Of a DNA stretch of 64,000 bases, positions 8,770 through 64,000 are shown piece by piece (position 1 is the first letter of the stretch; each line of letters begins with the position of its first letter). The position numbers were made by a program, and so were the translations under genes. The notes beneath the pieces are model-generated. The model was not told the DNA's origin, made no database searches, and saw only the letters and a program-made list of their open reading frames with translations. This DNA comes from PVC group bacterium (GTDB taxonomy: Bacteria > Omnitrophota > Gorgyraeia > B26-G9): contig JAAEQR010000072.1 of NCBI GenBank assembly GCA_024231215.1, positions 193,210 to 257,209 of the forward strand, read 5' to 3'.

Positions 8770-8846
<77 letters not shown>

Positions 8847-10093: not shown

Positions 10094-10170
10094 GGCGGTG
10101 TAGCTCAGCCTGGTAGAGCAAACGGCTCATACCCGTTATGTCAGTGGTTCAAATCCACTCGCCGCTACCA
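10094..10170 (+). tRNA. tRNA with CAU anticodon: elongator tRNA-Met or tRNA-Ile2 (lysidine). tilS is present in this window.
   Basis: ggcggtgtagctcagcctggtagagcaaacggctcatacccgttatgtcagtggttcaaatccactcgccgctacca. The cloverleaf folds with G1:U72, anticodon loop ctCATac and an encoded CCA. Confidence 0.8.
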
Positions 10171-21501: not shown

Positions 21502-22551
21502 ATGAAATTGAACGACTTGGTAAAACAGACGAGTGGTTGGTTAAAAGGTACGGGACCGAACTCTGATATTGTGATTTCAAGTCGTGTGCGGTTAGCGAGA
21601 AATTTGGAAAAGGTAACTTTTTCTAATTGGGCAAATAAGAAACAAAAAGAGCAGGCATTGGGAATTATTAGCCCGGTAGTTAAAGATGTGGATTCGATAA
21701 AAAATAACGGATTGCTGCTGAAAGTTGCAGACATGTCCAATATTGATAAACAGTTTTTGGTGGAACGTCATCTTGTTAGCCGTGAGCATATTACTAATAT
21801 CGAATCGCATGCTGTAGCGATAAGCAATGATGAAACACTTTCGGTAATGATAAACGAGGAAGATCATTTGCGTATTCAGATATTACAGCCGGGTTTGAAT
21901 CTTGATGAATGCTGGAGAAAAAGTGAGCAAATGGATGCTACTTTATCTAAAAAATTAAGTTTTGCGTTTTCTCCTAAATGGGGATATCTCACAGCTTGCC
22001 CGACAAATACGGGCACAGGAATGCGTGCTTCAATAATGCTTCATCTTCCGGCGTTGGTATTGACTAAACAGATTAATCGGGTTATCCAGGCGATTATAAA
22101 ACTTGGATTAACTGTCCGTGGACTCTTTGGAGAGGGCACAGAAGCTGCGGGAAATTTCTTCCAGATTTCTAACCAGGTGTCTTTAGGGCGAAGTGAAGAA
22201 GAAATAGTTGATAATATAAAGCGGATTATCAGGCAGGTATTGGAATATGAACAGAATGCGCGCAAAGCTTTAATTACCCAGAATAAAAGCGGATTGTCGG
22301 ATCAGGTTTGGCGTTCATACGGAATATTAAAAAACGCGCATATTATATCAAGTTCAGAGACTATAGAATTGTTGTCCAATGTGCGATTAGGGATAGACCT
22401 GGGATTGATTAAGGGATTAACAACAAAGGTAATAAATGAATTATTTATATTTACCCAGCCGGCTCATTTACAGAAGCTGGAAAATAAAGTTTTAAATTCG
22501 CAACAAAGGGATATTAAGAGAGCAGAATTGATTAGAGAGAAAATAAAATAG
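21502..22551 (+). CDS. mcsB: Protein arginine kinase McsB (ATP:guanido phosphotransferase family)
   Basis: The CPTNTGTGMRAS active-site loop of phosphagen-kinase-like proteins, in the mcsA-mcsB-clpC context. Confidence 0.85.
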   Translation: MKLNDLVKQTSGWLKGTGPNSDIVISSRVRLARNLEKVTFSNWANKKQKEQALGIISPVVKDVDSIKNNGLLLKVADMSNIDKQFLVERHLVSREHITNIESHAVAISNDETLSVMINEEDHLRIQILQPGLNLDECWRKSEQMDATLSKKLSFAFSPKWGYLTACPTNTGTGMRASIMLHLPALVLTKQINRVIQAIIKLGLTVRGLFGEGTEAAGNFFQISNQVSLGRSEEEIVDNIKRIIRQVLEYEQNARKALITQNKSGLSDQVWRSYGILKNAHIISSSETIELLSNVRLGIDLGLIKGLTTKVINELFIFTQPAHLQKLENKVLNSQQRDIKRAELIREKIK

Positions 22552-22565
22552 GAGGAAATAATATT

Positions 22566-25001
22566 ATGTTTGATCGTTTTACAGAGCGAGCACGGAAGGT
22601 AATTCTGTTGGCAAAAGAAGAAGCCAAACGTTTTAACCATGATTATATTGGGACCGAACATATGCTGCTTGGTCTGATCAAAGAAGGCGAAGGAGTTGCG
22701 GCTGCGGTATTGCAGAACTTAGGGCTTAATCTCGATATGATTCGTTTAGAGGTCGAAAAGCTGGTTCAGCCGGGACCAAGTACGGTTACCTCAGGGGATA
22801 TTCCCTTTACACCTAAGGCGAAAAAAGTAATTGAATTATCAATGGATGAAGCGCGTAACTTAGGCCACAACTATATTGGAACAGAACATTTACTTTTAGG
22901 GTTAATTCGTGAAAACGAAGGAGTAGCTTCACAGGTGCTTTTGAATTTAGGTCTTGATTTAAATAAAGTACGTAAAGAAATAATGGAGCTTTTGGGTACA
23001 ACCTCAGCGGCGTATGATAATAACCAGGCTGCAGCTGTTCCGGGGAAGGCTAAAACACCGGCTTTGGACGCTTTTGGCCGTGATCTTACGAAATTAGCAA
23101 TAGATGGAAAACTGGATCCGGTTATCGGCAGGTCTATGGAAATTGAGAGGGTTATTAGAATATTAAGCCGTAGAACAAAGAATAATCCCGTACTTTTGGG
23201 AGAAGCCGGAGTGGGTAAAACAGCTATTGTGGAAGGTCTTGCGCAAAAAATCATCAGTGGTGATGTGCCGGAAGTTCTTAGGGACAAAAGACTGGTGGTT
23301 CTGGATTTAGCGCTTATGGTTGCCGGGACAAAATATCGCGGACAATTTGAAGAACGGATTAAAGCGGTTATGGATGAAATTAAGCGTTCGGAAAACGTTA
23401 TGATCTTTATTGATGAATTACATACACTTGTCGGAGCTGGCGGTGCTGAAGGTGCAATCGACGCATCGAATATATTGAAGCCGGCTTTAGCTAGAGGGGA
23501 AATCCAGTGTATCGGAGCAACTACGATTGATGAATATAGAAAACACATTGAAAAAGACGCGGCATTAGAACGTCGTTTTCAGACGATTATGGTAGAACCG
23601 CCGACCATCGCCCAGACGGTTGAAATTTTAAAAGGGTTACGTGATAAATATGAAGCACATCACCGTGTGAAATATTCTGATATTGCTTTGGAAGCAGCGG
23701 CAAAATTATCGGAACGATATATAAGCGGTAGATTTCTGCCGGATAAGGCTGTAGATATTATTGATGAGGCTGGGTCTCGGGCACGTTTGATGGTTATGAC
23801 TGCACCGCCTGATCTAAAAGATTTAGAAAATAAGATAGAAGATTTACGTAAAGAAAAAGAAGCTTCGGTTAAAGCTCAGGATTTTGAAAAAGCGGCTTCG
23901 TATCGTGATCAGGAAAGAGAATCACGCGGCGAATTGGACAAAATACGTAAAAGCTGGAAAGAAAGCCGCATGGAAATGAGTGTGGAGGTAATGGAAGAGG
24001 ATATTGCCGAAATAGTTTCGCAGTGGACCGGAGTGCCGATTGCTCGTTTGGAAGAAAAGGAAACTGAAAAATTACTTAAAATGGAAGATGAACTACATAC
24101 TCGTGTGGTAGGGCAGAATGAAGCGATTACTGCGATTACCCATGCGGTAAGGCGTTCCAGGGCTGGATTAAAAAGCGCAAAACGTCCGATCGGTTCGTTT
24201 ATCTTTTTAGGGCCGACTGGTGTGGGTAAGACACTTTTAGGTAAAGCATTAGCTGAATTTTTATTTGGAGATGTTGATGCTGTAATCCAGATCGATATGT
24301 CTGAATATATGGAAAAATTCAATGTTTCCCGGTTAGTAGGTGCTCCTCCGGGATATGTTGGGTATGAAGAAGGCGGCCAGCTTACGGAAAAGGTGAGACG
24401 ACGTCCTTATTCGGTAATTCTTTTGGATGAAATTGAAAAAGCACATCCGGATGTATTTAATCTGTTGCTGCAGGTATTGGAAGAAGGTCGTCTTACGGAT
24501 AGTTTTGGGCGTAAAGTTGATTTCCGTAACACAGTACTGATCATGACTTCTAATATTGGAGCGGATCTTTTGCGTAAACAAGGATCACTTGGATTTAAAC
24601 CTCAGGAAGATGAGATGAATTATCAGTCCATGAAATCCAAATTGATGGATGAGGTCAAAAAAGTATTTAAACCTGAGTTTGTAAATCGTGTAGATGACCT
24701 AATTGTTTTCAGACCGTTAACTAAAAATGATTTGTATAAAATCATTGAGATAGAAATGAAAGAAGTTCAGGCTCAGCTTAGCGAGCAGGAAATAACTATA
24801 GAGCTGGATCAGGATGCTAAAGATATGCTTATTACTAAAGGGTTTGACCAGCTTTACGGGGCTCGTCCGTTAAAGAGGACAATACAAAGATATTTGGAAA
24901 ATTCTCTAGCAGAAGCTATTATTTCCGGTAAGGTAGATAAAACTAAACCAATTAAGATTCATGCGGATAAAGAAAAAGAAAATCTGGTGTTTAGCAGTTA
25001 A
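22566..25001 (+). CDS. clpC: ATP-dependent Clp protease ATP-binding subunit ClpC
   Basis: Two Clp_N repeats, two AAA+ modules (GEAGVGKT, GPTGVGKT), and a UVR-like linker. Confidence 0.95.
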   Translation: MFDRFTERARKVILLAKEEAKRFNHDYIGTEHMLLGLIKEGEGVAAAVLQNLGLNLDMIRLEVEKLVQPGPSTVTSGDIPFTPKAKKVIELSMDEARNLGHNYIGTEHLLLGLIRENEGVASQVLLNLGLDLNKVRKEIMELLGTTSAAYDNNQAAAVPGKAKTPALDAFGRDLTKLAIDGKLDPVIGRSMEIERVIRILSRRTKNNPVLLGEAGVGKTAIVEGLAQKIISGDVPEVLRDKRLVVLDLALMVAGTKYRGQFEERIKAVMDEIKRSENVMIFIDELHTLVGAGGAEGAIDASNILKPALARGEIQCIGATTIDEYRKHIEKDAALERRFQTIMVEPPTIAQTVEILKGLRDKYEAHHRVKYSDIALEAAAKLSERYISGRFLPDKAVDIIDEAGSRARLMVMTAPPDLKDLENKIEDLRKEKEASVKAQDFEKAASYRDQERESRGELDKIRKSWKESRMEMSVEVMEEDIAEIVSQWTGVPIARLEEKETEKLLKMEDELHTRVVGQNEAITAITHAVRRSRAGLKSAKRPIGSFIFLGPTGVGKTLLGKALAEFLFGDVDAVIQIDMSEYMEKFNVSRLVGAPPGYVGYEEGGQLTEKVRRRPYSVILLDEIEKAHPDVFNLLLQVLEEGRLTDSFGRKVDFRNTVLIMTSNIGADLLRKQGSLGFKPQEDEMNYQSMKSKLMDEVKKVFKPEFVNRVDDLIVFRPLTKNDLYKIIEIEMKEVQAQLSEQEITIELDQDAKDMLITKGFDQLYGARPLKRTIQRYLENSLAEAIISGKVDKTKPIKIHADKEKENLVFSS

Positions 25002-34927: not shown

Positions 34928-35212
34928 ATGGATCAGGAACTTAAATTTTTGAAAACAGCAGCTGTAATTTTTAAGGTTTTAGCTTGGGTTTCAGCGATTT
35001 TCTTTCTGGTTGTGACTATGATTGTGCTTTTTGGGGCAGCAGGGCCGGACACGCCTAGAGCCGCAAGCATAGTTTTCTTATTGGGCGGTGGTTTTTATTT
35101 TCTGGTTCTTTTTGGTCTTTCAGAGGCATTGAAACTTCTTTTTAGTTTATCTGCGAAAGTTGATAAGATTCTCGGGCTTCTGTCGGGAAAGCCTGTTGAT
35201 AGAAATATATAA
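34928..35212 (+). CDS. Small two-TM membrane protein (hypothetical)
   Basis: 94 aa with two long hydrophobic segments. No domain recognised. Confidence 0.4.
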   Translation: MDQELKFLKTAAVIFKVLAWVSAIFFLVVTMIVLFGAAGPDTPRAASIVFLLGGGFYFLVLFGLSEALKLLFSLSAKVDKILGLLSGKPVDRNI

Positions 35213-35238: not shown

Positions 35239-36144
35239 TTGAAAAAAGCATTGTTAGTTGCAATATGTATGATATTTTTATGTCCATTGGTCTTTGCTGA
35301 AAAACAAGAGCAGGATAAAGTGAAATTAAAATATAATTTTAAGGTTGGAGATAACTTAACTTATCATTTGAAGATGAAAGATGAGTTATTGCTTGAAGAT
35401 GAGAGGCTAGGGGGAGAGCCTTTTAAATCAACTATAAAGTCTACGGGATTTATTAATTATGAGCAAGAAGTGCAAGGGGTTGATTTGTCGGCAGACGAAA
35501 TTAAGATAAAAGTTAGTTATGGAAGAGGTAATAAGTATATGTTTCATGGGGATAAGTTAAGCTCTAATCCAGTCTCGACTGCGCTGGATGATAAAAGTAT
35601 TCTTTTGACAATGCATTTGTCTGGCAAGTTAAAAGATAAGAATGTGATAAAAGGGCAAGGATTTTCTTTGCATGATCGTGATATTATGCAATTACTCTTT
35701 GTCGAGTTCCCCGAGAATGAATTGCAGTCAGGAGATAGTTGGGTTAAAGAGAATAATTTGCCTTTAAATATTCCTTCTAGGGATGGAGTAAAGATCTTAG
35801 CAGAGAAAAGCATCAAATCAAAATATACGCTTCTTAGTATAGAGAAGAGAGGTGTTTATGATTGTGCAAAGGTTAATCTGGAAGCAAATATTAATGGTTT
35901 TCGTGATACTGCAGGGCATGGTATTATTGTTAAGGAAAAAACCCTGGTAATTATTGACGGCTTAATATATTATGATCTGGCAACAGGGTATGTGGTATAT
36001 GCTGATCTCTCTAAGTCTATACATACCAAAGAAGTTATAAAGATTGATTCTAAGCATGAAAAAGCAACTGAGGCGAGTAAAAAATCATCTCCTGGAACAA
36101 TTATTATGGACAGAGAAGTCCATACTTCTGTAGAATTATTGTAA
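35239..36144 (+). CDS. Secreted hypothetical protein, paralog B of 5937..6815
   Basis: Signal peptide, then EKQEQDKVKLKYNFKVGDNLTYHLKMKDE... (compare paralog A EKQDKVKLKYEFKVGDTLNYNLKVDGK). Both end ...ELL. Confidence 0.6.
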   Translation: MKKALLVAICMIFLCPLVFAEKQEQDKVKLKYNFKVGDNLTYHLKMKDELLLEDERLGGEPFKSTIKSTGFINYEQEVQGVDLSADEIKIKVSYGRGNKYMFHGDKLSSNPVSTALDDKSILLTMHLSGKLKDKNVIKGQGFSLHDRDIMQLLFVEFPENELQSGDSWVKENNLPLNIPSRDGVKILAEKSIKSKYTLLSIEKRGVYDCAKVNLEANINGFRDTAGHGIIVKEKTLVIIDGLIYYDLATGYVVYADLSKSIHTKEVIKIDSKHEKATEASKKSSPGTIIMDREVHTSVELL

Positions 36145-36161
36145 TATGCAATCAGCTCACC

Positions 36162-36190
36162 TTGACAACTAACCCCTTGTATGGTATAAT
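36162..36190 (+). promoter_or_regulatory. Sigma70-like promoter (TTGACA, 17-nt spacer, TATAAT) driving the riboswitch leader
   Basis: ttgacaactaaccccttgtatggtataat is a textbook consensus. It lies about 85 nt upstream of the aptamer. Confidence 0.65.
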
Positions 36191-36269
36191 TTTAACAGGA
36201 TAGCTGTAAGAATTTAAGACATTATAAAATGATTTTAAAAAGACATTCGTAAGTGTCTACAGCTGTTGA

Positions 36270-36372
36270 GGATGTTAAAATCCGAAAAGGCAAACCTCAG
36301 GAAATTGAGGGGCGCAAAGCTACGGGTCTAAAGCTAGATTGCTACGATCGCCGGGCGCACCGACAACGATAT
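36270..36372 (+). ncRNA. c-di-GMP-I (GEMM) riboswitch aptamer (putative)
   Basis: aaaaGGCAAACCtcagGAAAttgaggGGCGCAAAGCTACGGGTCtaaagc... parallels the Vibrio Vc2 aptamer (...agGGCAAACCattcGAAAgagtggGACGCAAAGCCuCCGGCCuaaacc...): a GGCAAACC strand, a GNRA-capped P1b, and a GCGCAAAGC-YR-CGGG core. Confidence 0.6.
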
Positions 36373-36385
36373 AGCATAAGTTATG

Positions 36386-36443
36386 ATAGCCGAGCTGCCG
36401 AAATTTTAGTAATTTAATTGCGGTTGTTCGGCTATTTTTATTT
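36386..36443 (+). terminator. Putative expression-platform terminator of the riboswitch leader
   Basis: atagccga ... tcggctat stem (36386..36435) followed by tttttattt, directly before the RBS and ATG of the 36455 ORF. Confidence 0.5.
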
Positions 36444-36454
36444 AGAAGGGAAAG

Positions 36455-36907
36455 ATGATGAAAAGAAACTTCTGGCTCAAATTGATTGCAGTATTAATCA
36501 TCCAGGCGTTATTTTTGACGCAGGTTGATTTTTCTTTGGCTGCAGTTTATCAGAGTAAAGAAGTTTTGCAGGAAGGCGTCTTGAAACTAGTGAGAATAAA
36601 AGATGCCGATACCAGCTTGATTAGCGGTATTAGCTGTGTATACTTTGCAGTATTTTCTATCTTAAGGGGATCTGGAACATCCATAACAGAATTGGTTTAC
36701 GGGGGAGAAGTACGCACAGATACTAAACATATTTATAAAGCGTTTATTCATCAGGAAGACAAGATAATTGCAGATAATACAGGTTTTAGTATTATAGAGA
36801 TTATAAATAATGGCAAACAACTAGAACAGGCAAGTACTCAAAATTCAAGAGCACCTCCGGCTGAAGAAAAAATAGCGTTGATGTTTACACAAACCCGAAC
36901 TACATAA
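36455..36907 (+). CDS. Small secreted protein whose N-terminal leader is homologous to that of the giant protein
   Basis: MMKRNFWLKLIAVLIIQALFLTQVDFSLAAVYQSKEV compared with the giant protein MQGLTGKLWFKIIAFIVLQTFMFVQADISWAANYRQQ. 150 aa, no other domain recognised. Confidence 0.6.
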   Translation: MMKRNFWLKLIAVLIIQALFLTQVDFSLAAVYQSKEVLQEGVLKLVRIKDADTSLISGISCVYFAVFSILRGSGTSITELVYGGEVRTDTKHIYKAFIHQEDKIIADNTGFSIIEIINNGKQLEQASTQNSRAPPAEEKIALMFTQTRTT

Positions 36908-36928
36908 TTTAATAGTTCGGGTTTTTTG
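36891..36928 (+). terminator. Rho-independent terminator enclosing the stop codon of the 36455 ORF
   Basis: aaacccgaacta...tagttcgggtttttt. Confidence 0.7.
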
Positions 36929-36953
36929 TGTCTAAAATATATACAGAAGGGAG

Positions 36954-37343
36954 ATGAGAAAGATGATTGAAAAACGCAGATTTCCCAGAGTAAATCATGA
37001 GTGCCCTGTTCAGTTGAAAACAATGCGTGGAACCGGCTCTAACTTGATGAAAAATTCATTTTCTAAGAATGTAAGCCAGAGCGGAATGGAACTAGTTTCT
37101 TTTGATTTTTATCCGGTTAATGACAGGGTTCAGGTACAAGTTTTTTCAAGCAGTTATGCTAGCATGATGCAGGCAGTAGGCAGAATAGTATGGGTGCAGC
37201 AGTTACCTAACCAAGAAAAATATCGCATAGGTATTGAATTAGTGGAAGTAAGCCGTAGTGCTTACCGAAAACTTACATCTTTGGTTCAGAATACGTTGTT
37301 AAGTCATGGGATTGGATTACAGGGGGATATGAATGTTGCATAA
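36954..37343 (+). CDS. PilZ-domain (c-di-GMP-binding) protein
   Basis: RRFPR (RxxxR) followed about 30 aa later by NVSQSG ((D/N)xSxxG). These are the two c-di-GMP-contacting motifs of PilZ. 129 aa, single domain. Confidence 0.7.
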   Translation: MRKMIEKRRFPRVNHECPVQLKTMRGTGSNLMKNSFSKNVSQSGMELVSFDFYPVNDRVQVQVFSSSYASMMQAVGRIVWVQQLPNQEKYRIGIELVEVSRSAYRKLTSLVQNTLLSHGIGLQGDMNVA

Positions 37344-38664
37344 GCAGAGCGTATTAACATATCTTAGACATAGTCAACAGTCTTTTTCAATATTTTGGGA
37401 CTGTTCTGCTTTGAATCTGAAGTGTTGGAGCCGGATTATAATATTTGCTTTGGTATTTATTTTATTACTTTCGACACTTGTTCGAGGTCAGTTTTCGGAT
37501 AAAGAATACGGTAGTTCTAATGGTAAACGCAAGCCGATATTAAGAGAAGATCAGATTCCGGTAAAAGACGGGGTTTCATATTCAGCATTTGAAGAGACGT
37601 CTGTTTCCAAGAGCCGGGAGTCAGAAGGAGTCAGAACTACAATTAGCGGCTTATTGGATGCGGGATATGACTTAGAGGAAGTTGTTGTGCTTTTAGAAAA
37701 ACAAGGACATAGCGCGGCATCAATTAGTATCGTTTGTCTGGATCCTCAGTTTAAACTAGATGCCAAGCAGATACATAGTGCTTTGCATAAAGCTGGGTTT
37801 TCAAAGCAGGAAGCAGATGGCGCTGTTCCTGTATCATTGCGCCAGGCAAAACAGTTATTTTATCAGCCGGCGAAGAATAATTCTAAATCAGTTATTGCAG
37901 AAAAATCATTAGAGTCTCAGGCAGTTGAATCGCTTCAAGTGAGTGCTCCGGCAGTCAAACCTTTAATAAATAGTGAAACAGAATTAAAAAGTACAATCAA
38001 TACTCTTAAACGCTCAAGGGTTTCTACTCCTCAGATTGTAGAAGTTTTAAAAGAACTTGGCGTATCTTCAGATAGTATAGTTAAAGCTTTTGATGAGATC
38101 CAAAGCGGGAGTTCAACCGATGGGTTTAATGGTCTGGGGGAATGGAAATCATTTCAAAACGCAAGATACGATAATGTAAAAAGTGAAGCAGCGATAATTG
38201 CTTCGGATATAGAACTTGTCAGTTCGCTTCGCGCTTCAGGTTATACGACTAAAGATATTGTACAAAGTATAATGTCTAGACCTAAAAATAAAAACATTTC
38301 AGATAGTTCTAATTTAATAAGAAAAATGGTTAAAATTTTATGTAAATCCGAGATTAATTTAGAAGATACCGTGAATACTTTAAAAGATAATGGGGTTTCC
38401 TCAGAAACGATTATTATTGCGTTTATGGGAAAGCCTGTTTCATTGATAGATAAAATAAAATCAGGAATGTTATTTAGCAATAATACTACTAAAACAGCTA
38501 ATAAAATTATTAAAGGAGTAGTTAACGGAGTAACTTTAAAAACTGTAATTAAAGACCTGCAGCATTCAGGTCATAAAAATAAAGATATTGTTAGTGCCCT
38601 GGATTTTTTGCAGGTTTCCGGAGTGCAGACATCTGAAATATTTAATCAGACAGCGAGGAGGTAA
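37333..38664 (+). CDS. Membrane-anchored repeat protein with at least 8 copies of a ~18-aa 'G(F/Y)S..(D/E)I..A' motif
   Basis: Single N-terminal TM (RIIIFALVFILLLSTLV). Repeats include ISGLLDAGYDLEEVVVLL, IHSALHKAGFSKQEADGAVP, IVEVLKELGVSSDSIVKAF, LVSSLRASGYTTKDIVQSI, TVNTLKDNGVSSETIIIAF and VIKDLQHSGHKNKDIVSAL. Confidence 0.6.
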   Translation: MLHKQSVLTYLRHSQQSFSIFWDCSALNLKCWSRIIIFALVFILLLSTLVRGQFSDKEYGSSNGKRKPILREDQIPVKDGVSYSAFEETSVSKSRESEGVRTTISGLLDAGYDLEEVVVLLEKQGHSAASISIVCLDPQFKLDAKQIHSALHKAGFSKQEADGAVPVSLRQAKQLFYQPAKNNSKSVIAEKSLESQAVESLQVSAPAVKPLINSETELKSTINTLKRSRVSTPQIVEVLKELGVSSDSIVKAFDEIQSGSSTDGFNGLGEWKSFQNARYDNVKSEAAIIASDIELVSSLRASGYTTKDIVQSIMSRPKNKNISDSSNLIRKMVKILCKSEINLEDTVNTLKDNGVSSETIIIAFMGKPVSLIDKIKSGMLFSNNTTKTANKIIKGVVNGVTLKTVIKDLQHSGHKNKDIVSALDFLQVSGVQTSEIFNQTARR

Positions 38665-38669
38665 TAGCG

Positions 38670-39944
38670 ATGAAAAACTTAATAACCAGGATTTTGTGTA
38701 TAACGGTTATATTTTTATTTACGCTTGCGCCGTATTGCTTTGCAGGGTGGGGAAACGTAAGAAAAACAATAGATATGGAGACTAATAAAGATAAAGTTGA
38801 TTCTGCTCAAATAGATAATAAAGAGACTCCATATTCTCATATAAGTACACTAGAGCAAGGTAAAGCAGAGGTTAAGACTTCGAATGAAGAGACAAAAGCT
38901 ACGGTTACAGGGTTAAAAGATGCGGGTTTTTCTGTAGATGCGATTGTGAATAATTTAAAGAACGGGGGCAAAAATGCTTCTGAGATAAGTGTGGCTTGTT
39001 TAGGTTGCAATATCAGTGGCGCGGCAGTACATGCAGCGTTGATTAAATCTGGATTTTCCAAAGAAAGCGCTGATTCAGTAGTGCCGGCAGGATTAATAAA
39101 TCAAGAGTCTGAGGCTTCAATAGCACAGAGCCAAACAGGAAATACTTTAAGCGAAGTGACTGCTCCATTAATTAGTGATTTAGTTTTTGTTCCAATGGAT
39201 AATAATGTTGGAGAAGTATCAGCTAGTGTAGGAGAAGTGGCTTCTGTTGGGTTGAACGATACCAAGCAGGAAGCTTTACAGTTTGCAAAAGATGAACTTG
39301 GAGAAATGCCTCAGAAACCGGAACTTAAAGGGAGAGGTTTCTTTAGCAAAATTATTCGAATATTAGTTTTTCGTATTAAAGTTATCAATAAGATGAAAAA
39401 AGCAGAGAAGACTTCTAAAAAAATGGTAGAAAATGGATATTCTTCTGCGGAAATAGGACATGCTTTTGCTGGAATCGGATACAGTCAGAGACAGACGGCA
39501 ATATTATTAAAAACATCTGGTTTTTCGACAGAAGAAGCATATACAGGTTTGCTGGAAAGCACGGACATTTGGCAGGGGGCAGAGGAGAAAACTATTGCGA
39601 AGTCTATGATTGAAGCAGGATATAATGAAACAGAAGTTGATGCCGCTTTAATCGGTAGTCTGAAAAAACAGGGATATACAGCACAGGAAGTGGTTAATAC
39701 TATTTTTTCAGACATGCCTGAACAGCCAAAAGCAAAAGCGTTAAGTGGTTGGAGAGGTATTATGGTTAGAATCTTAAGAACTGTTTATAATCGTAATATG
39801 GAGGTAAAAGTACAAAAGGCGGAAAAAGCAGCTCAGAATATGATTCGCAGTGGATATAGTAGTGAAGAAGTAAAGGGAGCTTTTAGAAATGCAGGATTTA
39901 ATGATACAAACGCAGTTAAAATATTAAATGCCATTGGCGCGTAA
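38670..39944 (+). CDS. Secreted repeat protein, paralog of 37333..38664 (same G(F/Y)S repeat family)
   Basis: Signal peptide MKNLITRILCITVIFLFTLAPYCFA. Repeats TVTGLKDAGFSVDAIVNNL, VHAALIKSGFSKESADSVVP, MVENGYSSAEIGHAFAGIGYSQRQTAILLKTSGFSTEEAY, MIEAGYNETEVDAALIGSLKKQGYTAQEVVNTIF and MIRSGYSSEEVKGAFRNAGFNDTNAVKILNAIGA. Confidence 0.6.
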   Translation: MKNLITRILCITVIFLFTLAPYCFAGWGNVRKTIDMETNKDKVDSAQIDNKETPYSHISTLEQGKAEVKTSNEETKATVTGLKDAGFSVDAIVNNLKNGGKNASEISVACLGCNISGAAVHAALIKSGFSKESADSVVPAGLINQESEASIAQSQTGNTLSEVTAPLISDLVFVPMDNNVGEVSASVGEVASVGLNDTKQEALQFAKDELGEMPQKPELKGRGFFSKIIRILVFRIKVINKMKKAEKTSKKMVENGYSSAEIGHAFAGIGYSQRQTAILLKTSGFSTEEAYTGLLESTDIWQGAEEKTIAKSMIEAGYNETEVDAALIGSLKKQGYTAQEVVNTIFSDMPEQPKAKALSGWRGIMVRILRTVYNRNMEVKVQKAEKAAQNMIRSGYSSEEVKGAFRNAGFNDTNAVKILNAIGA

Positions 39945-40004
39945 TTATTGATAAAATATATAAAAAAATGATAAACTAATAAATGAATAAACAAAGGAGA
40001 AAAA

Positions 40005-43000
40005 ATGCAAGGACTAACTGGTAAGCTGTGGTTTAAAATCATAGCCTTCATCGTTTTACAAACTTTTATGTTTGTGCAGGCAGATATATCCTGGGCGGCA
40101 AATTATCGTCAGCAAAAAGGCCAGGGCGAGAGGGTTGTTGATGAACGCGATAAAGTATCTAAAGACGCGTTAAATACCCAGGTAGTTCTAAATCAGCCTG
40201 CAGTACCGTTTATTAGTTTTGATCCGGGGATTGCTCCGCCTCGTTCGGAAAAACTATCTTTAATCGAGACAACCATAGAAGGTTTGTCGATGGCCGGTAC
40301 GAATTTAAAAACTATATTTGGTACTTTAAAGAATTCCGGTTGTTCGGTATCAGAAACTGGTTTTGCGGCGATGCGGCAGGGATATCCAAAACACGAAATC
40401 TATAAAGCTTTGATCAGCGCCGGGTATGATAAAGAAGAAGTAAAGACAATGCTTGGTAGTATATTACAGCGTGAAGAAGAAAAGAAATCAGAAGATGAAT
40501 CAGCTAACCAGAAGACAGGACCGCCGCTAGACAAAGAGAAAAAGGATGCTGATAAAGAAGCTTCCTTTTTAGACGCAGAACAACCAATCCCCGAATCTTC
40601 CGAAGTGACCGCCCTTTCTGTGGGCAAAGATCCCGTTAAAATAATCGAAAAAGCAACAGCTGATAATGCGGTAATGAACCAGACAGTTGCGTTTGTACGT
40701 TTAATGATCAATGAAGGTAAACGTGGTAAAGAGCTTATAAAGACTTTAAAGAAAGCCGGACTTACTAATGAAAGAATTGTCATGGCTTTGGCTCAGTTAG
40801 GTTTTAGCTTGGATGATATTGTCGCTATATTTAAAGAAGCGGATATCAGCGCTACAGAAATTATTCAGGCCATACACAATGGCTTTTTGGCGTTTAGCGA
40901 TAAAGATATTTATAATGCCCTGCTTAAAAACGGATTTAGTGATAAAGATATTATTGCCGCATTTAAAACAGCCGGAGTATCTTCAGAAGATGTTTTAAAG
41001 ATAGCTACACAATTAAGCCGGAATATGGTGAGTGTGGCCAAGGCAATGGTGGAGGTAGGTTTTAGTTATGCTGATATTGCCAAAGCATATCTTTTAAAGG
41101 CAATGAAATGGACTTTTGATAAGAGTGTGCATGTTGTGAACTGTGCGGTCAAGGCATTTGACGCATTTCTTACTAATATCGGCCGTAAATTTACAAGCAA
41201 AGAAGAACTTGCCTATGAACTCATTGTAGATGATATCCTGCGTACCGGAGAAGTAGAGATTACCGGTAAAGATGTAATGACTTCTATGCTGGCAATAAAG
41301 AATGTTGCCCAGAAATATGGAATAGATATGCAGGGGTATAATTTGACCCTGGAAAGCCTGATGGAATTAAATGACGCAGCGATTGTGCATTTAGACGGTG
41401 ATCACTGGGTAAGTTTGCAAAATATAGATGGTGATCAGGTTTCAATTATTGATAACGGAGAAGAGAAGACAATTTCTCTTACTGAACTAAAAATTCGTTG
41501 GGATGGCAATACATTAGCGATCAATCAGGAGAGAACACAATACCAAGAGCTTTTAGATTTACAGATGCGTCAGATACGTGGTGGTAGAGGTTGGAATCCT
41601 TTTAAAGCGATAAAGAAAATATTTAAAGCAGTTAAAAATTTTATTGTAAAGACTGTTAAAGCTATAGTTAATATAACTAAAGCTGTATTTTATACAATTA
41701 CGGGAAATACACAAAAAGCAGATTATTATTATAACAGGGGTTTTCAACAGTTAAGCCAAGCGCTTAACTCGCTTATCAATGCAGTAGTTCCTGGTAAGTT
41801 CCTACAGAAAATTTTTAAATCTATTGCCAATGGATTGGTTATGTTTGCCCGAGGAATGGTTAATCAGATAAGAGGCTTGTGTATGATGGCTCGGGGTGAT
41901 TTTAAACAGGGATTTAAAACATATCTTATGGGAGTTGTGCAGACTGCGGTTGCTCCGCTAGTTAGTCTCTATGGGATGTTAGGAGAAAAAGTAGGTAGGG
42001 TCGTAGCCAAGGTTATTCAGTGGGTAGTACGTATTGTTGCAGCTGTATTAAGTTTTGTTTGTACTAAAATTTTTGGCTGGACAGGAATAGGAATGGCTAT
42101 AGGAATGGCTATTGCTTTTGTAGCTACCGTAATTACCTGTATGGTGGATTATGATTTTGTTCAGATGGTTCAACGTGGTGATGCGAATGAAATTGCGAGT
42201 GTTATGGGCAAAATATTTAAGGCGGCAGCTATATCCGCAGTAATTGCTGCTGTTGCTTTTTGTATAGGAGGAGCTATCCAGGGATTAGGAGGCACCGCAT
42301 CAACAACAGGCTCAACAATAGCAACAACAGTAGGTAGTATTGTGAGTACTGTAGCCAAGGCAGCAATTACTGTAGCTAAGACTGCAATGACTGTAGCCAA
42401 GTTTGTATTAGCTCCTGTAATAACGGTAGTCAATGTTTTAGCTAGAGCTGCAATGACTGTAGTTACTGCTATAACTAAAATTGTAATGACTGTAGTTAAG
42501 GTTATAGTTGATGGTATGAATCATGTAGTGAGAATGGTGACAAACTTTTTAAAACCTATGATTGAGAATCTTAAGAATTCTATAGTGAATATGGTGAAAG
42601 CTATAAAACCAGATGCAGTTATTCAGGAGATAGGAAGCGAGGTAATTGAAGAAGCTATAACAAAGGTAGTAAAGGAACAAATTGCAATGTATGTTGCTAC
42701 TAAAGGATTGGACTCTGCTGGGATTGATGATCCTTATGTGAGGGCTGGTATTGTAGGTGCTATTGGTGCATGGGCTGGGGGAGACGGCTTTAAAATTGAT
42801 GCAAAAGATGTGGTTGAAGGAGTTTTTATCGGGACAACTCAGGAGACAATAAGGCAGCAGGGATATAAACGTAATTGGGATCCTTTACTTATAGAAAGTC
42901 TCGCTACTGTAGGAGGGACAGTAGTTGGTGCGTCTATAGGTGCTATTCAAACTTCTAGGACAGTTTATACTGGTACCTGGGCGAGTAGAACAATGGATAA

Positions 43001-46000
43001 TTTAAAAGCTTCTTTTGGCCAGATGGTTGGTAATATAGCGACAAACGCTGTACAACGTATTTGCCTGGAAAATGGTATGGATCCTATTGCCACCAGCGCA
43101 ATATCTTCACTTGCAGGTGGTCTTGTCACTGGGCTGGGAAATTATGCTGTTGGAAACAGTCCAGGTGGTTTTCGTAGAAATATGGGGTTTGCATTGGTCC
43201 AAGGAATTAATGATGGGTTTACGTCAGCTGGTTCTATGTTGTATAAAAAGATTTTAGTCGAAGACTTAGCCTTTACTGATAGTCAGGCGTCTTCGATGGT
43301 AAATGGTACTTTTGGTCAATTGAAATATCAAATGGAGCTGCACAATGAATTCGGTTATGGAAAATGGGAAGGGACCGATGACCTGACTTTTAGTCAAAAG
43401 CTTCAACTCGCGGGAACAAAACTTGGTGAGGGTGGAGTGTTTAGTGATTCTTTAAAGGTATTAAATAGAAATGATGGTCTTAAAAATGATCTTATTTCTG
43501 CTATGGGTTTGAACTCAGGTTCGTATTCCGGAACTGCGTATGATAAAGCGAGCTATATAGATGGTTTTAATAGCAAAATAGACTCCATGGATTACATGAT
43601 GAATGGCTTGGATTCCAATATAGAGCTTAAAGCAGATGGTAAATATTATAATTCTGATGGTAGTATTAATACTTATATGTCCCGCAATAAAGCGAAAAAC
43701 GAATATTGGAATCATTGGAAAGAAGCAAAACCAGAAATATTTGGACAATCAGCAGGTGATAGCAATGGAGGGCAATCAACAAATTTAAGTTTTGGCGATG
43801 CTTATTTTGAGACTATTTCTACTCGGCAGCTAAGTTGGCAGAATACCAATGCGAGAAGTTCCCTTAGTTTTATTACTGCTCCTATACGTAATAGCTTAAA
43901 CGTTTCCATATATAATGCTACACGCACTGCATATGAACCTCGCGCTATTATGCAGGGCGCTGAAATTATAAAGATCGCGGACAATTCAGCACAACAGAAA
44001 TATTTAGCAAATTCTATTAGCCCACAGTTTAATTCAATAATAGATGTCAATAATGTAACTTCTGTAGCTTTTAATAGCTGGAATCATTTTCAAACTAATA
44101 CTGCTGCCTATTTTACGACAATTTCCAGCAGTGTTAATAATAAGGGAAGGGAAGTATATGTTTTTAATACAGGCAGAAGAGTTGGTTCTAATTTGGTTTG
44201 CGCGGAAACTCCAAATAAGCAGGCTATGGAAAGTTTTTTCAAAACGGAAGAAATCAATAATTTAACGATCAGTCCTTTTACTAGTAAAACACTGGGTAAT
44301 TTTGAGGCTCAAAACAAGGAAGAATTCATTATTACCGGAGCTATTCAGCAGTTGACGAAAACCGGGATAATTGTAGATTATCAGCTGGTAAGTATGACCG
44401 AGGGTGCAGATATTCTTCTTGCAACAACAATTAATAATGTTGACTTGTTTACTACTGTTGCCAGCGGGGTGCAATTCAGTTCTCAGTCATTAGTATTGAA
44501 GGATAAGAATAACAGTACTTATAAGACTGCGATTGATAAAGTATCCGTAGATTTAGGCATTAATGAAAGTGTTGATAAAATTGCTAATCAGGTAAAGTTA
44601 ACTTCTGCAGTTGAATTATGTATTAATGCTAATGGAAACTTGAGTATAACGGGAGAATCTCTGGACGAACTTAATACAGAGTTAGGAGCCTTGGAAAATC
44701 TGGCAAAGAAATCTAAGGCTATTGATTTGCCGGGCGGTTGTGTTCTTGCAAATACGTCTCTTGAGTATATTGAAACTTCAGAAGGATTAGAGCTTATCGC
44801 AAAAGAGACATTACAGAAAGATCGTAATATTGAATATGAGGGACTAGGTTATACAATTGATACAAGTAAAGGTACGGTTCAGTATGTTTATAATAATAAG
44901 GGAAAAATTACGAGTTTATTGAATTTCGATAAGGGGTATAAAGGAGTAACGCTTAAAGGTTCAGATGGCAAATCAATAATGATTTTTAACGGAAATAATG
45001 TGACTTTAAGTAATGATAAAAAGTCATTTTTTAACTCAATGTTAGTGAAATTGAATTATCGCAAAGGAAATGAATTGAGTATTCGTAGTGCGGAAGTATT
45101 AGCTATAGATGATTATAATCTCGGGAAAGTAAATAGCTTTGAAGTTATGCGACAAGGAAAATCTTTAGCATCATCATCAATAACTGATTCTGCTAAAGAT
45201 TTGTCTACCGAGGGGAAATTAAATTATATTCGTTTAGGTTCTGATTCGGATAGTAATACGATTATTAAAGCAGGAAGTGTTTTTACTATTATTGAAAATG
45301 AGGTCAAATTCAAGAACAATGATGTTTTAATTAATGAAGGAACCAATTCGATTAGTATTACTGGACAAGACAGGTCTTTAATGACTTTGAATGGAAAAGA
45401 ATCAGCAATAATATTGAAGGGTAGTGCGCGTAAATTTGATCTGACTAAAGAAAGTGTCCAAGAGCAGATGAGACAGAAACAAGGCATTCCTACGGATGAT
45501 ACATTAGTAGAGAAGGATACCTTTGTCTTGGGAGACGGCAGCACTGTTGTAATCTATGCAGACCAGGATTCTAATTCTAAGGTATTACAGGTGTTTTCTG
45601 GAAACTTGGGGACAAATGATAAAGGACATAGAACTATCGATGTTTCATTTGTTAATGAAAATGGAATACTGGAAACAATGTCTATGAACAACGATATGCT
45701 AAGGCAGAAGGTCAATTCCAATAGATTTATTAATGGAGTACAAGGGGTATATCAAATTACTTCTGGAGATCAATTAGCATTGGTATTTGAGTTTGGGACA
45801 GGTTCTAATATGCAGCGGAAAGTTTTAGATTTTAGTCTCGGGGAAGATACCAATGGCAGTAGTGTATATACATTGAATGACTGTAGTTTAAATACAGATA
45901 CAAACACTATTAATATGGGCGGGGTGTCTTTTGATAAAACAGAGACATCTTTGCAAACAGCTGTCTTTTATCGTTCGGAAGATACTTCAGCTGTTCAGGG

Positions 46001-49000
46001 GAAAACTGAGGAGATGAATAATGATAGGCTTGATACATTAAATACAGGTATTACTATTGGAGGACATGAAGCTCATTATCAGATAACGACTGATAATAGA
46101 AATAAAGTTGTTTTATCTTATGATGATAAGGTAGTGATGTTTTCTAAAACTACACAGGGGACTGTGGTACAGGCGCCGAAGAATGCAGATGGACTAAGGG
46201 AAATCGGTGACATGGTTAATACTGCGGAAACAGGAGAAAAGACAATAGATGTTATAACTTTTGATGATTCTCAGGTAACTGCGACTATAAATACGATTAC
46301 TCTAGAAGCAGAAGTTTCTCAGCCTAAGAGCATAAATGATATAGACTATTCCGGCAAGAAAATTATGGTTGATGGAGTGAATGGGAGATTTAATAAGGAT
46401 TTGCCAATTAATCAGAATAAAGATGAACTTGTTCCGCGGTCATTTGAACTTGCTGACGGAACAATGCGGGAATGTGTGGTTTTGGCTGAGGCTGATGTTA
46501 ATGCCGGAGAATTTTTGGGAAAATTAGGTGGAGCTAAAATAATCGGGCTTTATGCTACAAAAGATAACCAGGTTTTTATGCATGTACAGGGCAGACAGAA
46601 TATTGTTATGCCGGAAGATAGCTCTGGGCCATCTGATCAGAGTCCTGCGTATACTATTAGTAAGTTTGATATTAAGAGGAAGACAAGTAATGGTTTTAGA
46701 GTTGAAGGTCTTGTTGAGTACCAGCTTTCAGCAGTGGACAATAAAGGTGATTTTGAATTTAATCCCATGGCTTTTAATCCTGGCGCACAATTTTCTGTTT
46801 CCGAAAAGTTTAATAAGAGAGAAGTTATAATCAAAAATAAAGTGCTATTGCGTGGAGATGAGTGTGTTGTTACAAGTCAAGGTGTGGAGGTCGAGAACAG
46901 GATTGATGTTGATTTTATCACGCAGTCACTAGCAGTAAATGATAAAGCATCTACGATTTTTAATCAAATGGTTAGAGTTGATGTGTCTTTACATAAGAGT
47001 GAAGAAGCAGATGCTAATCCAGCGTTAATGATTGATAATGTATTAAGTGTAGATGGTAAAAAAATAGATTTGGACGAGCTATCAGGGATAATTGTTTCTG
47101 AAGGGGAACTTAAGGCAGAGTTTCAGGGAGTGAAACTGGAGAACGGAATAATATCTTTGTCAGCTAAAGGGACAGGTATTATTAATACAATTGGTCAAAA
47201 CCCAGGAGATGAAGAAGATATAGGGTACAATCTGCCAGGTATCACAGTTGCTAATTCAAACTATAAATTAACTCAGAATCTGGGGGAAGGATTTGCAGTT
47301 TGGGAAGGCTTGATGGATTTTGCTGTAATGCCGACAGGTAATGTAAAAGCTTTGTATGAGCAGCAGGGAGTAAAAGGCATTATTGCGGATACATTTGAAG
47401 GCGAGGTTACTATTGCCGGACATAAAGTTAAGAAGTCAGAACAGTTTGAAGTAAATTATGCGGGTGTTACAGTTATTCCTATTGTGCAGCCGAAAACTGT
47501 ACGAAATTTAATGTCTGGAATAGGAGAAAATATATCAGCTGATATTATAAATAGTCTTCGTCAAAATTCAGGCGGTCTTTTTGGAGAGGATCAGTCAATA
47601 ACTGGAGTTATGCATAAAATAAACGAAGACCTTACCGTAGTTAAACTTGATGATAGCAACTCTGTTTTTGATGGGGTAGATTCCTTATTGCAAAATGTAA
47701 ATGTATCAGAAAATGCATTTGATATTGTACAGGTTAATAATGTTCAGCCGTTGGTTCTTATAAGAGGCGACAATGTATCTGTTACTTATTGTGAGATTGA
47801 TAGTAAAGGATTGCCGGTTATAATTGGTAGTTCTGGTATTGATAGCCAACAGGGTATTATTTCGGTAGGCATCGAAAAAGCAGAGCGTAGTTTTAGTGCT
47901 TTTGCCAATGATAACCAGTCCTATGTATATAATAAAACTTCTACAAATGATTTTAGTTTAGAATTAATGCCGCAGCAAGGGAATAAGAATAGTTACTATG
48001 GTACATTGACTAGTAAAAAAGGAGTTGTTACAGGAACTGGTGTTTTTAATAAGAAAAATGCAAGTGATAACCCTATGGTGGCATCGGCGGCTATTTCGAA
48101 ATTTACCGCGGATAATTTAGCTGTAACACAAATAACCCCGCTTGTGCAGGAAGGGAAAGCTCAAGGTTTTAGAATAGATAGTATTTCCGAAACAGCTGTT
48201 GCTTCCTTATCTTTTGTTCCTACAGATAGAGGGGATGCTCTTTTTGCACGGCATTCAAATAAGGAAACAGGAAATCAATATGAGAAGATTTTCTATCTTA
48301 GTGGTTCTAAAATATATCCTAATAGTAAGGCTGGAAATTGCGCGTATTCTTATATCAAGACATTTGATGAGAACAATGATTTAAATATTAGGATAGAAAC
48401 CACAGATGCTTATCGTGGAAGTAAGGAATTTCAGAATAAAGTTTTACTAGTAGACGGAACCTATAATAAAGAGTCAAAGGATTGGAAATACAGTTTAAAT
48501 AGAGAAGGAATTAAAGAAGAAAATTTATTCATAAATAAACATGAGTTTAAGGCATTAACTGATACAATACTTGGTGAGTTTGGAGCTGTCTTAGGTAAAG
48601 ATCTTGGTTTAGATAAGATTAAGGTTGCAGATATTAAGCTAGAGGGGAGTGGAAGTTCTAAAACAGAAAAATATTTTGGGCTTACTGCTGAAGTCTCAGA
48701 AACCGGGTTTAGATTGTATGATCCAAGGGGTGGATATAGTCTCTCTTTGAATGAGAAGAATATCGAAGTGGGGGTGCGGGGAGAATCAATCACATTGTTG
48801 ACCAGAAGCTCAGACAGAGATGAGAGTCATATTAATGAAATCGCTGTTTTAAGAGAATCGTCTTATCATGTAAGTACGGTTAAAGATAAATCAGCCGGAC
48901 TTATCGTTGATGATAAACTTGTCTTGCAAAGAAATGAAAGTGGCTGGCAGTTAGGAGCAGAACATACAGGGAAGTACGAAAAAATATCTAAAGAAGGATC

Positions 49001-63516: not shown

Positions 63517-64000
63517 ATGAGGTTAAAATCATTGTTTAGGCTATTATGGATTTTAGTAATGATCTTTATGTTCAGTGGTCAGCTTTTAGCTACGGAAGCT
63601 TCAGAGCTATTAGATTTCAAAATACCTTCTTCCTGGGGAGTGATTAGAGATTCTTTTGATGCCGGTACGGACAAGATTGTGATAAATATACAAGATGCGC
63701 ATGCTAACCTGGAGGCTCAGGAGAATATTGCCAAGATTCTTGACCGCCTGGTGTCTCAATATAATTTAGAACTTGTAGCGTTAGAAGGTGCTTCCGGGAA
63801 AATTGATGCAACAGTGCTTTCTGCTTTTCCGGATAATGCATTGAAAAAGGATGTTTCCGCTTATTTCCTGCAGGAAGGGAAGATCAGCGGAGCAGAATAT
63901 TTGGCAGTAAATAGTGATTATGATTTTAAATTATATGGAGTAGAAGATTTTGATTTATATTTAGATAATCTCGAGGCTTTTCATAATGCCCAGGATTTCA
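63517..64000 (+). CDS. Secreted hypothetical protein (N-terminal part; continues beyond the window)
   Basis: ATG at 63517, 7 nt after AGGGAGGA. Signal peptide MRLKSLFRLLWILVMIFMFSGQLLATEA. Open-ended, so not in the ORF track. Confidence 0.5.
   Translation, partial: MRLKSLFRLLWILVMIFMFSGQLLATEASELLDFKIPSSWGVIRDSFDAGTDKIVINIQDAHANLEAQENIAKILDRLVSQYNLELVALEGASGKIDATVLSAFPDNALKKDVSAYFLQEGKISGAEYLAVNSDYDFKLYGVEDFDLYLDNLEAFHNAQDF

Follow-up and report, generated by a model that had tools for sequence, protein, structure and literature searches.

The head of a giant-protein locus in a 64,000-nucleotide stretch of contig JAAEQR010000072.1 (assembly GCA_024231215.1), hereafter the window, carries an RNA element of the c-di-GMP-I (GEMM-I) class of riboswitches, which respond to cyclic di-GMP (c-di-GMP). 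Very probably, this element is a functional transcription-termination riboswitch that gates the first open reading frame (ORF) of the locus, ORF1, a small gene resembling the N-terminal end of the giant protein itself. Within helix P2 of its aptamer lies what appears to be a second, nested 3′ half, and related leaders carry the same pair.

An earlier reading of this DNA from its letters alone (the sequence-only reading) had recognized a GEMM-I-like leader by GGCAAACC, a GAAA-capped helix and GGCGCAAAGCTACGGGTC, and had proposed searching it with the covariance model RF01051. All three elements fall inside the RF01051 alignment of the following feature, which is the only riboswitch match in an Rfam scan of the whole window; a focused scan agrees.

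36279..36402, forward strand: c-di-GMP-I (GEMM-I) aptamer, long form, matched by RF01051

The match scores 74.9 bits, where the gathering score is 35 bits, with an E-value of 7e-13 for the whole window, and it spans model positions 1-87 untruncated. Helix P1a occupies 36295..36310 with its GAAA loop at 36301..36304, the 5′ strand of P2 (strand 1) occupies 36318..36328, and the GNRA tetraloop is matched by a receptor, CUAAAG...UAUGAU. Across an alignment of 12 sequences, 98.9% of the cells are paired, and five of the six P1a pairs show changes on both sides. Aligned to the Rfam consensus, G36289, A36316 and C36399 are the equivalents of G20, A47 and C92 (Vc2 numbering), which we take to be the ligand contacts seen in crystal structures.

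The identity of the ligand can be read from two of these positions. GEMM-Ib variants of the cyclic GMP-AMP (cGAMP) type have A at position 20, and the c-di-GMP-I-GGC variant (RF03167) has G at position 47. The cGAMP variant, which the sequence-only reading had wanted checked, is excluded because G and not A stands at the G20 position: G36289 rules out a 3′,3′-cGAMP GEMM-Ib identity, and G is found here in all 12 aligned sequences. GCAAAG, with A at the A47 position, and clan scores lower than that of RF01051 ruled out the RF03167 or UAU variant; the related leader L007 alone scores marginally better with RF03167, yet it too has A at A47. At the level of sequence, the window aptamer is thus of the type that senses c-di-GMP and not cGAMP.

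The aptamer is preceded by two features.

36162..36190, forward strand: sigma-70 promoter, with TTGACA at 36162..36167, a 17-nucleotide spacer, TATAAT at 36185..36190 and an extended -10 TG at 36182..36183
36197..36278, forward strand: 5′ leader upstream of the aptamer, with AU-rich hairpins and the motif GATTTTAAA at 36231..36239

As the sequence-only reading had stated, the promoter is a consensus one, matching at 12 of 12 positions, and it is the sole perfect site within 35800..40200; transcription would start near 36197. At least 17 related loci have the same TTGACA-17-TGnTATAMT upstream of the aptamer. A short AU-rich hairpin with RWTTTTAAA lies about 35-45 nucleotides past the predicted start, 5′ of the aptamer, in the window (36231..36239), L001, L003, L006, L007, L008 and L036, and may serve as a stem-loop that stabilises the 5′ end, or else as a binding site. 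A leader ORF at 36253..36417 was rejected as a real peptide, as it merely overlaps the aptamer.

The aptamer holds its place among relatives of the locus. A search with ORF1 gave nine distinct homologue loci, one of which (L002) ends 121 nucleotides before ORF1 and hence could not be scored. An RF01051 aptamer above the gathering score (44-77 bits) stands at the same position in six of the eight scorable loci, namely the window, L001, L003, L006, L007 and L008; L005 and L009 have rearranged aptamers below it, that of L009 reaching only 28 bits. The gene order common to the ORF1 homologue loci is a ROK regulator, a small ORF, the aptamer, ORF1, a gene for a PilZ protein, two accessory genes and the giant ORF, and the conserved unit runs from the promoter through the riboswitch, ORF1, a terminator, PilZ and the two accessory genes to the giant gene. 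ORF1 is identical to the NCBI protein GY853_03665, encoded on a 708-kb contig of a metagenome-assembled genome (MAG) named 'PVC group bacterium'. When GTDB species genomes were scanned with an alignment of ORF1, only MAGs of Candidatus Omnitrophota matched, and every named relative is a Candidatus Omnitrophota. Judged by these matches, the host is a Candidatus Omnitrophota genome.

Downstream, the aptamer runs into a terminator.

36385..36443, forward strand: intrinsic terminator T1, with its 5′ arm at 36385..36399, its 3′ arm (strand 4) at 36419..36436 and its U-run at 36435..36443

The terminator-like hairpin and U-run that had been noted before the first ORF are borne out: the hairpin at 36385..36436 has a folding energy of -23.7 kcal/mol (z -5.5, with none of 200 shuffles as stable) and is followed by UUUUUAUUU. 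Its 5′ arm is the distal P2 3′ strand of the aptamer plus GCC, including the C92 region (strand 3, GAUAGCCGAGCUGCC, 36385..36399), so that aptamer and terminator are mutually exclusive. With a metagenome pattern scan, the leaders that have both 3′ halves (class 2) came to 23 distinct ones, of which 22 have an overlapping terminator with compensatory changes in the 3′ arm; the exception, L036, has a long insertion. When folds of the growing transcript were calculated, RNA ending just past 36399 took the exact Rfam consensus as its minimum-free-energy structure, and once the 3′ arm was added, T1 replaced the aptamer in the minimum-free-energy structure of the full-length RNA. For 17 of the 18 loci, the aptamer fold at the stage of the distal strand was either the minimum itself or no more than 2 kcal/mol above it.

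In the mechanism that we propose, the strong constitutive sigma-70 promoter would fire into a leader of about 258 nucleotides. Without ligand, the downstream arm would invade the aptamer, T1 would form and transcription would halt before ORF1, while with c-di-GMP bound the long aptamer would resist invasion and RNA polymerase would continue into ORF1 (ON). A perfect consensus promoter would also yield much terminated leader of about 240 nucleotides, and this abundant short RNA could itself be the product, buffering c-di-GMP as proposed for merRNA of the predatory bacterium Bdellovibrio (PMC3627812). Such a role is very unlikely here, given that a coding gene always accompanies the aptamer and has its ribosome-binding site just a few nucleotides past the U-run.

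The architecture of P2 departs from an ordinary aptamer.

36335..36381, forward strand: P2 apical extension, in whose folds a basal stem (UGCUA at 36340..36344 with UAGCA at 36372..36376) encloses the proximal half
36346..36367, forward strand: proximal pseudo-3′ half, made up of strand 2 (GAUCGCCGGGC) and the tail GCACCGACAAC, conserved in all 23 class-2 sequences
36279..36364, forward strand: short-form aptamer, made of the same 5′ half and the proximal 3′ half, matched by RF01051 on the shortened window

The Rfam alignment places a 41-nucleotide insertion at the tip of P2. The insertion starts GC-N4-6-GC-NAN-GAUCGCCGGGC-GCACCGA. In a canonical GEMM-I, these elements are the 3′ half of the receptor, the 3′ strand of P2 and the tail C92-G-A, and by this likeness the insertion is a second, nested 3′ half. 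When the window was cut at 36369, which removes the distal copy, RF01051 matched over the full model (1-87) with 62.0 bits; the short form also matches in L006 (66.1 bits) and L001 (56.2 bits) and is 100% pairable in 12 sequences. Both copies in class 2 retain the receptor A, a strand that can pair with the invariant 5′ strand, and the tail C-G-A, and all eight leaders found via the protein, that is, independently of the pattern, have both. The scan also gave 12 canonical class-1 aptamers, retrieved with a pattern taken from the proximal strand, whose sole 3′ half is GAUCGCCGRGCUGCCGAA.

The proximal copy might nevertheless be a peripheral structure, such as a folding aid or a docking site for a protein or a tertiary contact, or a relic of duplication, on an otherwise ordinary ON-type GEMM-I. 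We regard this as a real but not a favoured possibility. Whenever a predicted state includes the long aptamer or the terminator, the extension is folded on itself. In the long form, the proximal half makes a mini hairpin, CGG-GCGCA-CCG (36352..36362; C92-like C at 36361), whose closing pair covaries (G:C in 10, A:U in 6, G:U in 2 and A:C in 2), and the basal stem is kept with a different sequence in every locus (UUGCA/UGCAA, AUAGCU/AGCUAU, GCUUA/UAAGC, GUG/CAC and others). P2 tips of GEMM-I are known to vary in length, moreover, and the Rfam model tolerates the insertion. Against mere decoration, GAUYGC and its upstream A stay unchanged throughout, also in L001, L027, L011 and L037, where the extension fold offers them no partner. 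The retained likeness to a 3′ half points to selection and not to recent ancestry, since the ORF1 proteins of these loci share just 34-45% identity and the neutral positions of the RNA have been randomised. As we read these sequences, the long fold is a genuine structure, and selection acts on features of the short fold as well.

The proximal half is made first, and in the mechanism that we propose it would give an early ligand-competent fold, later exchanged for the distal half linked to the terminator. Early capture is attractive because the terminator arm lies only 5-12 nucleotides past the distal strand in several relatives. A bolder and rather doubtful proposal is that one 5′ half has two functional 3′ completions, the proximal one capturing c-di-GMP early, followed by hand-over to the distal half or by locking. 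If so, two holo folds would compete kinetically and thereby decide the outcome, which could lengthen the time for sensing or make the response non-monotonic (band-pass) or inverted. We have not seen switching between two 3′ halves of one 5′ half described for any riboswitch class; the arrangement is kept in an Omnitrophota clade, where it heads giant-protein loci.

Other variation surrounds the core of the related aptamers. In many of them, two hairpins are inserted into the core junction, separating the 3′ strand of P1a (GGAC/GGGC) from GCAAAGC (L005 27..100; L008 2603..2640; L009 9560..9637; L012, L019-L021, L024-L026 and L032); in L001, L003, L007 and L027 two hairpins stand instead between the conserved CCGAAAA element and G20. 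In L005 and L009, one inserted hairpin has a sequence like GCCGGA(A/G)AAGGCA and may thus hold a degenerate copy of the 5′ part of the aptamer. Aptamers with a single 3′ half and the same P2 sequence (L013 560..2049; L038; L015, L014, L023, L028 and L039; L017, L022 and L035, all on metagenome contigs) precede genes for T2SS-F/PilC-like (T2SS, type II secretion system), TadE-like and FN3-domain proteins and for a clostripain-family (C11) peptidase with a signal anchor. Same-P2 aptamers also precede unknown secreted proteins of 1425-2294 residues, and together these genes form the kind of surface and secretion regulon that c-di-GMP riboswitches usually have. The expression platforms of the single-3′-half relatives are unlike that of the window, having a separate terminator without overlap with the aptamer strand.

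We turn to the gene that the riboswitch precedes.

36455..36907, forward strand: ORF1, 150 residues, with the ribosome-binding site AAGGGA at 36446..36451, about 10 nucleotides past UUUUUAUUU
36891..36930, forward strand: intrinsic terminator T2 on the ORF1 stop, composed of AAACCCGAACUA, a loop with the TAA stop and UAGUUCGGGUUU, then UUUGUG

ORF1 aligns with residues 8-137 of the giant protein, which comprise the signal and the first helical module (BLASTP E 1e-5), and is, by this homology, a paralogue and free-standing copy of its N-terminal end; this relation and the two alternative aptamer 3′ halves had both escaped the sequence-only reading. The N-terminus of ORF1 is signal-peptide-like, with the motif IQALxLTQVDFxLAA invariant in all aligned homologues, and the product would be a small secreted or membrane-anchored protein, which may act as a partner, an anchor or a competitor for export. 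ORF1 matched no Pfam or NCBIfam family above cut-offs, and its AlphaFold model (pLDDT 46, pTM 0.22) is unusable. The shared signal-like N-terminus, encoded at 36455..36550 and 40005..40110, reads FWLKLIAVLIIQALFLTQVDFSLAA in ORF1 and LWFKIIAFIVLQTFMFVQADISWAA in the giant protein. An invariant core of this kind is atypical of ordinary Sec signal peptides and thus suggests a dedicated recognition step, possibly performed by the C39 or helicase domains that the giant protein carries.

The T2 hairpin (36891..36924) has a folding energy of -15.3 kcal/mol, and all 20 ORF1-type loci have an equivalent hairpin and U-run on the ORF1 stop (-11 to -24 kcal/mol, core CCGAAYUGUU/AACARUUCGG). This conservation makes ORF1 the transcription unit of the riboswitch, and by this arrangement its direct target is ORF1, a self-contained unit bounded by riboswitch and T2. 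The sequence-only reading had placed the whole locus under c-di-GMP control at both RNA and protein level. A riboswitch does head the unit and the PilZ protein is intact, but at the RNA level the presence of T2 in 20 of 20 loci narrows the direct unit to ORF1.

How far control extends beyond T2 is a separate matter. The next ribosome-binding site follows about 15-45 nucleotides past the T2 U-run in most loci, and in L036 the giant gene itself comes directly after the ORF1 terminator. Since there is no room for another promoter directly upstream, PilZ, the accessory genes ORF3 and ORF4, and the giant gene probably receive attenuated, riboswitch-dependent read-through, much less than ORF1; T2 would limit the transcription that continues into PilZ, the two accessory paralogues and the 7815-residue giant gene. 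Alternatively, the riboswitch may regulate ORF1 only, with the genes behind it served by a promoter within ORF1/T2 or upstream of 40005. The strength and universal conservation of T2 would suit this arrangement, as would weak promoter-like sites at 36909..36938 and 39948..39977, but these sites, matching at 9 of 12 positions, do not rise above chance (18 found and 14 expected) and are unconserved. They were the only candidates for an independent promoter of PilZ or the giant gene and were rejected as such. The narrow intergenic space past T2 and a rigid gene order, in which the giant gene can abut T2 as in L036, also argue against separate promoters, and we consider regulation of ORF1 alone rather unlikely.

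Repeats flank ORF1 in other loci, while the window lacks them. Two to four copies of (C/A)AGGAUGAAAUAAUCC-stem-...AGGAUG...-stem-GGAUAAR stand between the riboswitch terminator and the ORF1 start (L001 9838..9990; L005 250..415 and 944..1020; L008 ~2745..2880; L009 ~9800..9980; L026; L027). They recur after the ORF1 terminator in some loci, and in L005 the same sequence of about 80 nucleotides follows both terminators. In their CAGGAUG motif, the repeats are similar to CsrB-type sites bound by CsrA/RsmA.

The sign of the switch is a prediction. The layout is standard for an ON switch, and we favour ON over OFF because the distal copy fits the aptamer model better and keeps residues that only an aptamer needs, and because an unliganded antiterminator 4-16 kcal/mol weaker than the terminator would be a poor design for OFF. 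In an OFF switch, the short aptamer (36279..36364) would be the sensor; once bound, it would leave the distal copy free to pair with the 3′ arm and terminate. Without ligand, the extension hairpin would withdraw the proximal strand, and the 5′ strand with the distal copy would form an antiterminator that permits read-through. The short form is itself a full-length RF01051 match (62.0, 66.1 and 56.2 bits in the three leaders given above), it is transcribed first and would have 60-80 nucleotides of sensing time, and before the distal strand appears its fold lies 0.2-6 kcal/mol above the minimum, so that ligand could trap it. Its receptor-like GC-N4-6-GC-NAN and C92-like CGA are also kept in 22-23 of 23 leaders, although parts of them are partnerless in the long fold. 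Yet the antiterminator (strands 1:3) is the weaker structure in most loci and offers a toehold for strand invasion, and such a design would therefore tend to terminate in both states. Nor would a mere antiterminator strand need the aptamer-only receptor A and GCCGAA that the distal copy retains, and the distal copy scores above the proximal one in the Rfam model. An OFF switch is in our view improbable.

Nearest-neighbour energies for the window are -54.3 kcal/mol for the extension hairpin with T1, -50.0 kcal/mol for the short aptamer with T1 and -47.5 kcal/mol for the long aptamer. A decoy strand that stabilises OFF (a ground state of strands 1:2 and 3:4) found no support in these energies, the extension hairpin with the terminator being 4.3 kcal/mol better.

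Several points tell against an ON switch that also feeds the downstream genes. The short aptamer with T1 is more stable than the long aptamer, and if ligand stabilised both forms equally, binding alone would not block termination, so that ON needs kinetic trapping. The gap of about 5-12 nucleotides before the terminator 3′ arm in some relatives leaves a slow-binding aptamer very little time unless ligand has been captured earlier. Although P2 can pair at 100%, no variation is present in its 5′ strand across the aligned set, partly because the search pattern imposed it, and covariation is therefore uninformative between the long and the short form. T2 looks strong, so that riboswitch control of the giant gene may be weak or absent. 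Finally, the 1.3-kb contig L004 lacks the 5′ half of the aptamer and keeps only its 3′ end and the terminator. On this contig, coding-looking sequence at 1..460, resembling the end of a pre-peptidase-like ORF, takes the place of the 5′ half, and GAUGGCCGAGUUGCCGAAG and the terminator are all that remains upstream of the ORF1 homologue; the contig is a chimera of the assembly, or else the sensor was lost naturally and a constitutive terminator stayed behind. With these points counted, we lean only slightly towards the full model, including the ON sign and read-through into the downstream genes.

The rest of the locus comprises the following genes.

36963..37343, forward strand: single-domain PilZ protein, 126 residues, PF07238 (ATG at 36963; the ORF opens at 36954)
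37333..38664, forward strand: ORF3, 443 residues, with a signal or anchor and helical repeats of about 35 residues paralogous to the giant N-terminal region (BLASTP E 9e-9)
38670..39944, forward strand: ORF4, 424 residues, with a signal peptide and the same helical repeats as ORF3 (E 3e-7)
40005..63452, forward strand: giant ORF, 7815 residues, with an N-terminal signal like that of ORF1

The PilZ protein scores 38.5 bits with PF07238 (cut-off 22.5) and has intact RxxxR (RRFPR) and NxSxxG (NVSQSG) motifs, as the sequence-only reading had described; the gene was then placed two genes downstream, but it directly follows the first ORF. Most related loci have it at the same position with both motifs conserved, and it would add a c-di-GMP input at the protein level. 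L027, a close relative of L001, has no PilZ gene between ORF1 and a 239-residue gene, from which PilZ would be dispensable for the unit in at least one lineage. Relatives have a gene of about 210-250 residues at the ORF3 position and a homologue of 437-469 residues at the ORF4 position. Neither ORF3 nor ORF4 has a Pfam or NCBIfam match above cut-offs. Weak matches to RepB_primase_C, Rep_fac_C, RuvA and UBA-like families in ORF1, ORF3, ORF4 and a 301-residue ORF were set aside as short helical-repeat matches and not functional evidence. The giant protein has a Peptidase_C39 domain at residues 426-509 (39.6 bits) and a helicase segment at about residues 5170-5330 that matches ResIII and DEAD, not SecA_DEAD. 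The gene after it starts at 63518 (window 63518..64000) and encodes a signal-peptide protein, not PilZ, which departs from the downstream pilZ reported to be typical for giant genes of Omnitrophota.

Upstream, the 301-residue ORF (35239..36144) lies between a small membrane ORF (34928..35212) and the riboswitch promoter; it encodes a signal peptide and has no Pfam or NCBIfam family above cut-offs. As it is not found at this position in L001 and L003, it is, by this comparison, a lineage-specific insertion. More distant is a gene that had been brought into the c-di-GMP scheme.

15394..16302, reverse strand: HD-GYP phosphodiesterase, PF13487 (56.2 bits), with the HD motif HDMGK and HHERLDGTGYP

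The phosphodiesterase is real, but the locus does not include it: the gene stands at a distance of 20 kb on the opposite strand, between genes for TilS and a class II aminoacyl-tRNA synthetase (tRNA-synt_2). Its surroundings are housekeeping genes (H+-PPase, TilS, class II aminoacyl-tRNA synthetase, MacB, McsB/ClpC and Mla), and a gene among distant housekeeping genes is no evidence for the giant-protein locus. The housekeeping part also holds two tRNA genes at 8770..8843 and 10094..10167 (RF00005, 61.6 and 65.5 bits). At 21502..25001, an McsB-type ATP:guanido phosphotransferase adjoins a ClpC-type AAA+ chaperone with a UVR motif; the module of the McsB protein arginine kinase and ClpC, most familiar from Firmicutes, occurs here in an Omnitrophota genome.

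The riboswitch clearly belongs to a class already known, and its presence upstream of surface-protein genes will not surprise a specialist. Giant genes of Omnitrophota are among the largest known bacterial genes and their organisms are uncultured, and we know of nothing on how these genes are regulated. What is new, on the sequence evidence, is a first regulatory handle on an Omnitrophota giant-protein locus, with the tightest control placed on a mini-copy of the giant N-terminus, and a conserved pair of nested 3′ halves in the aptamer architecture. A consensus sigma-70 promoter with a well-understood riboswitch class is a handle that can be tested in vitro and in E. coli, without the native host, and it raises the question of whether c-di-GMP decides when the giant-protein apparatus is deployed. 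It also singles out ORF1, which copies the giant signal and first module in miniature, as the most tightly regulated component. The nested halves would be a compact natural case of mutually exclusive aptamer completions and bear on the sensing time of slow-binding riboswitches during transcription. No previous account of this link came up in literature searches on riboswitches of Omnitrophota (Omnitrophica) and on giant genes in connection with c-di-GMP, and a 2026 survey does not mention a riboswitch.

Among known systems, Vc2 of Vibrio cholerae, the subject of Sudarsan et al. in 2008 (reference 29 of PMC12448109), is reportedly the type example of GEMM-I. The window aptamer shares with Vc2 and RF01051 the full-length match, the GNRA tetraloop and receptor, the equivalents of G20, A47 and C92, and a place in the 5′ untranslated region of a surface or secretion gene. 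It differs in the 41-nucleotide extension of P2 with a nested 3′ half and in having two full-length matches (74.9 and 62.0 bits), and its relatives differ by two-hairpin insertions before GCAAAGC or between the CCGAAAA element and G20. With the Lap system of Pseudomonas (LapA/LapD/LapG), the locus shares a tie between c-di-GMP and the deployment of a very large surface protein. The sequence-only reading had called it architecturally unlike Lap, and rightly so: Pfam and NCBIfam searches of ORF1, PilZ, ORF3, ORF4 and the giant ORF found no LapD-like GGDEF-EAL receptor, LapG protease, type I secretion component or RTX, and control in the window would act through RNA and a PilZ protein.

The giant genes of Omnitrophota have been described by an N-terminal C39 domain, a SecA-DEAD-like domain, many transmembrane segments and an adjacent pilZ, with a class of more than 30,000 residues (West-Roberts et al. 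2023, bioRxiv 10.1101/2023.11.21.568195). That account places pilZ downstream and T2SS-like loci upstream; it speaks of pilZ and GGDEF and mentions no riboswitch. The window resembles these genes in its C39 domain near the N-terminal signal, its DEAD-type helicase segment, its adjacent small pilZ and its Omnitrophota relatives. Unlike them, it has PilZ upstream, housekeeping genes as upstream neighbours and a riboswitch at the head of the unit, and at 7815 residues its protein is small by the measure of that account.

The closest tested case is Bc2 of Bacillus thuringiensis, an ON-type GEMM-I riboswitch shown experimentally to derepress the adhesin gene for Cap (collagen adhesion protein) by antitermination (PMC4933901). 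The window shares with Bc2 the GEMM-I aptamer, the terminator/antiterminator platform, a target of surface-adhesion type and the predicted ON logic. Bc2, however, directly precedes its adhesin gene, whereas the first gene in the window is a 150-residue mimic of the giant N-terminus and a second terminator stands before the large gene. Another riboswitch of the same species, Bc1, is a GEMM-I with a long dual-terminator platform (PMC11218506). Like Bc1, the window has a platform that goes beyond one aptamer and one terminator and forms alternative structures; Bc1 has two terminators after one aptamer, whereas the window has two alternative 3′ halves before one terminator. Tandem GEMM-I riboswitches in Bacillus are complete aptamers in series. 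The leader in the window likewise repeats aptamer sequence, but it repeats the 3′ half only and nests it in P2, so that the two versions of the aptamer would be mutually exclusive and not independent.

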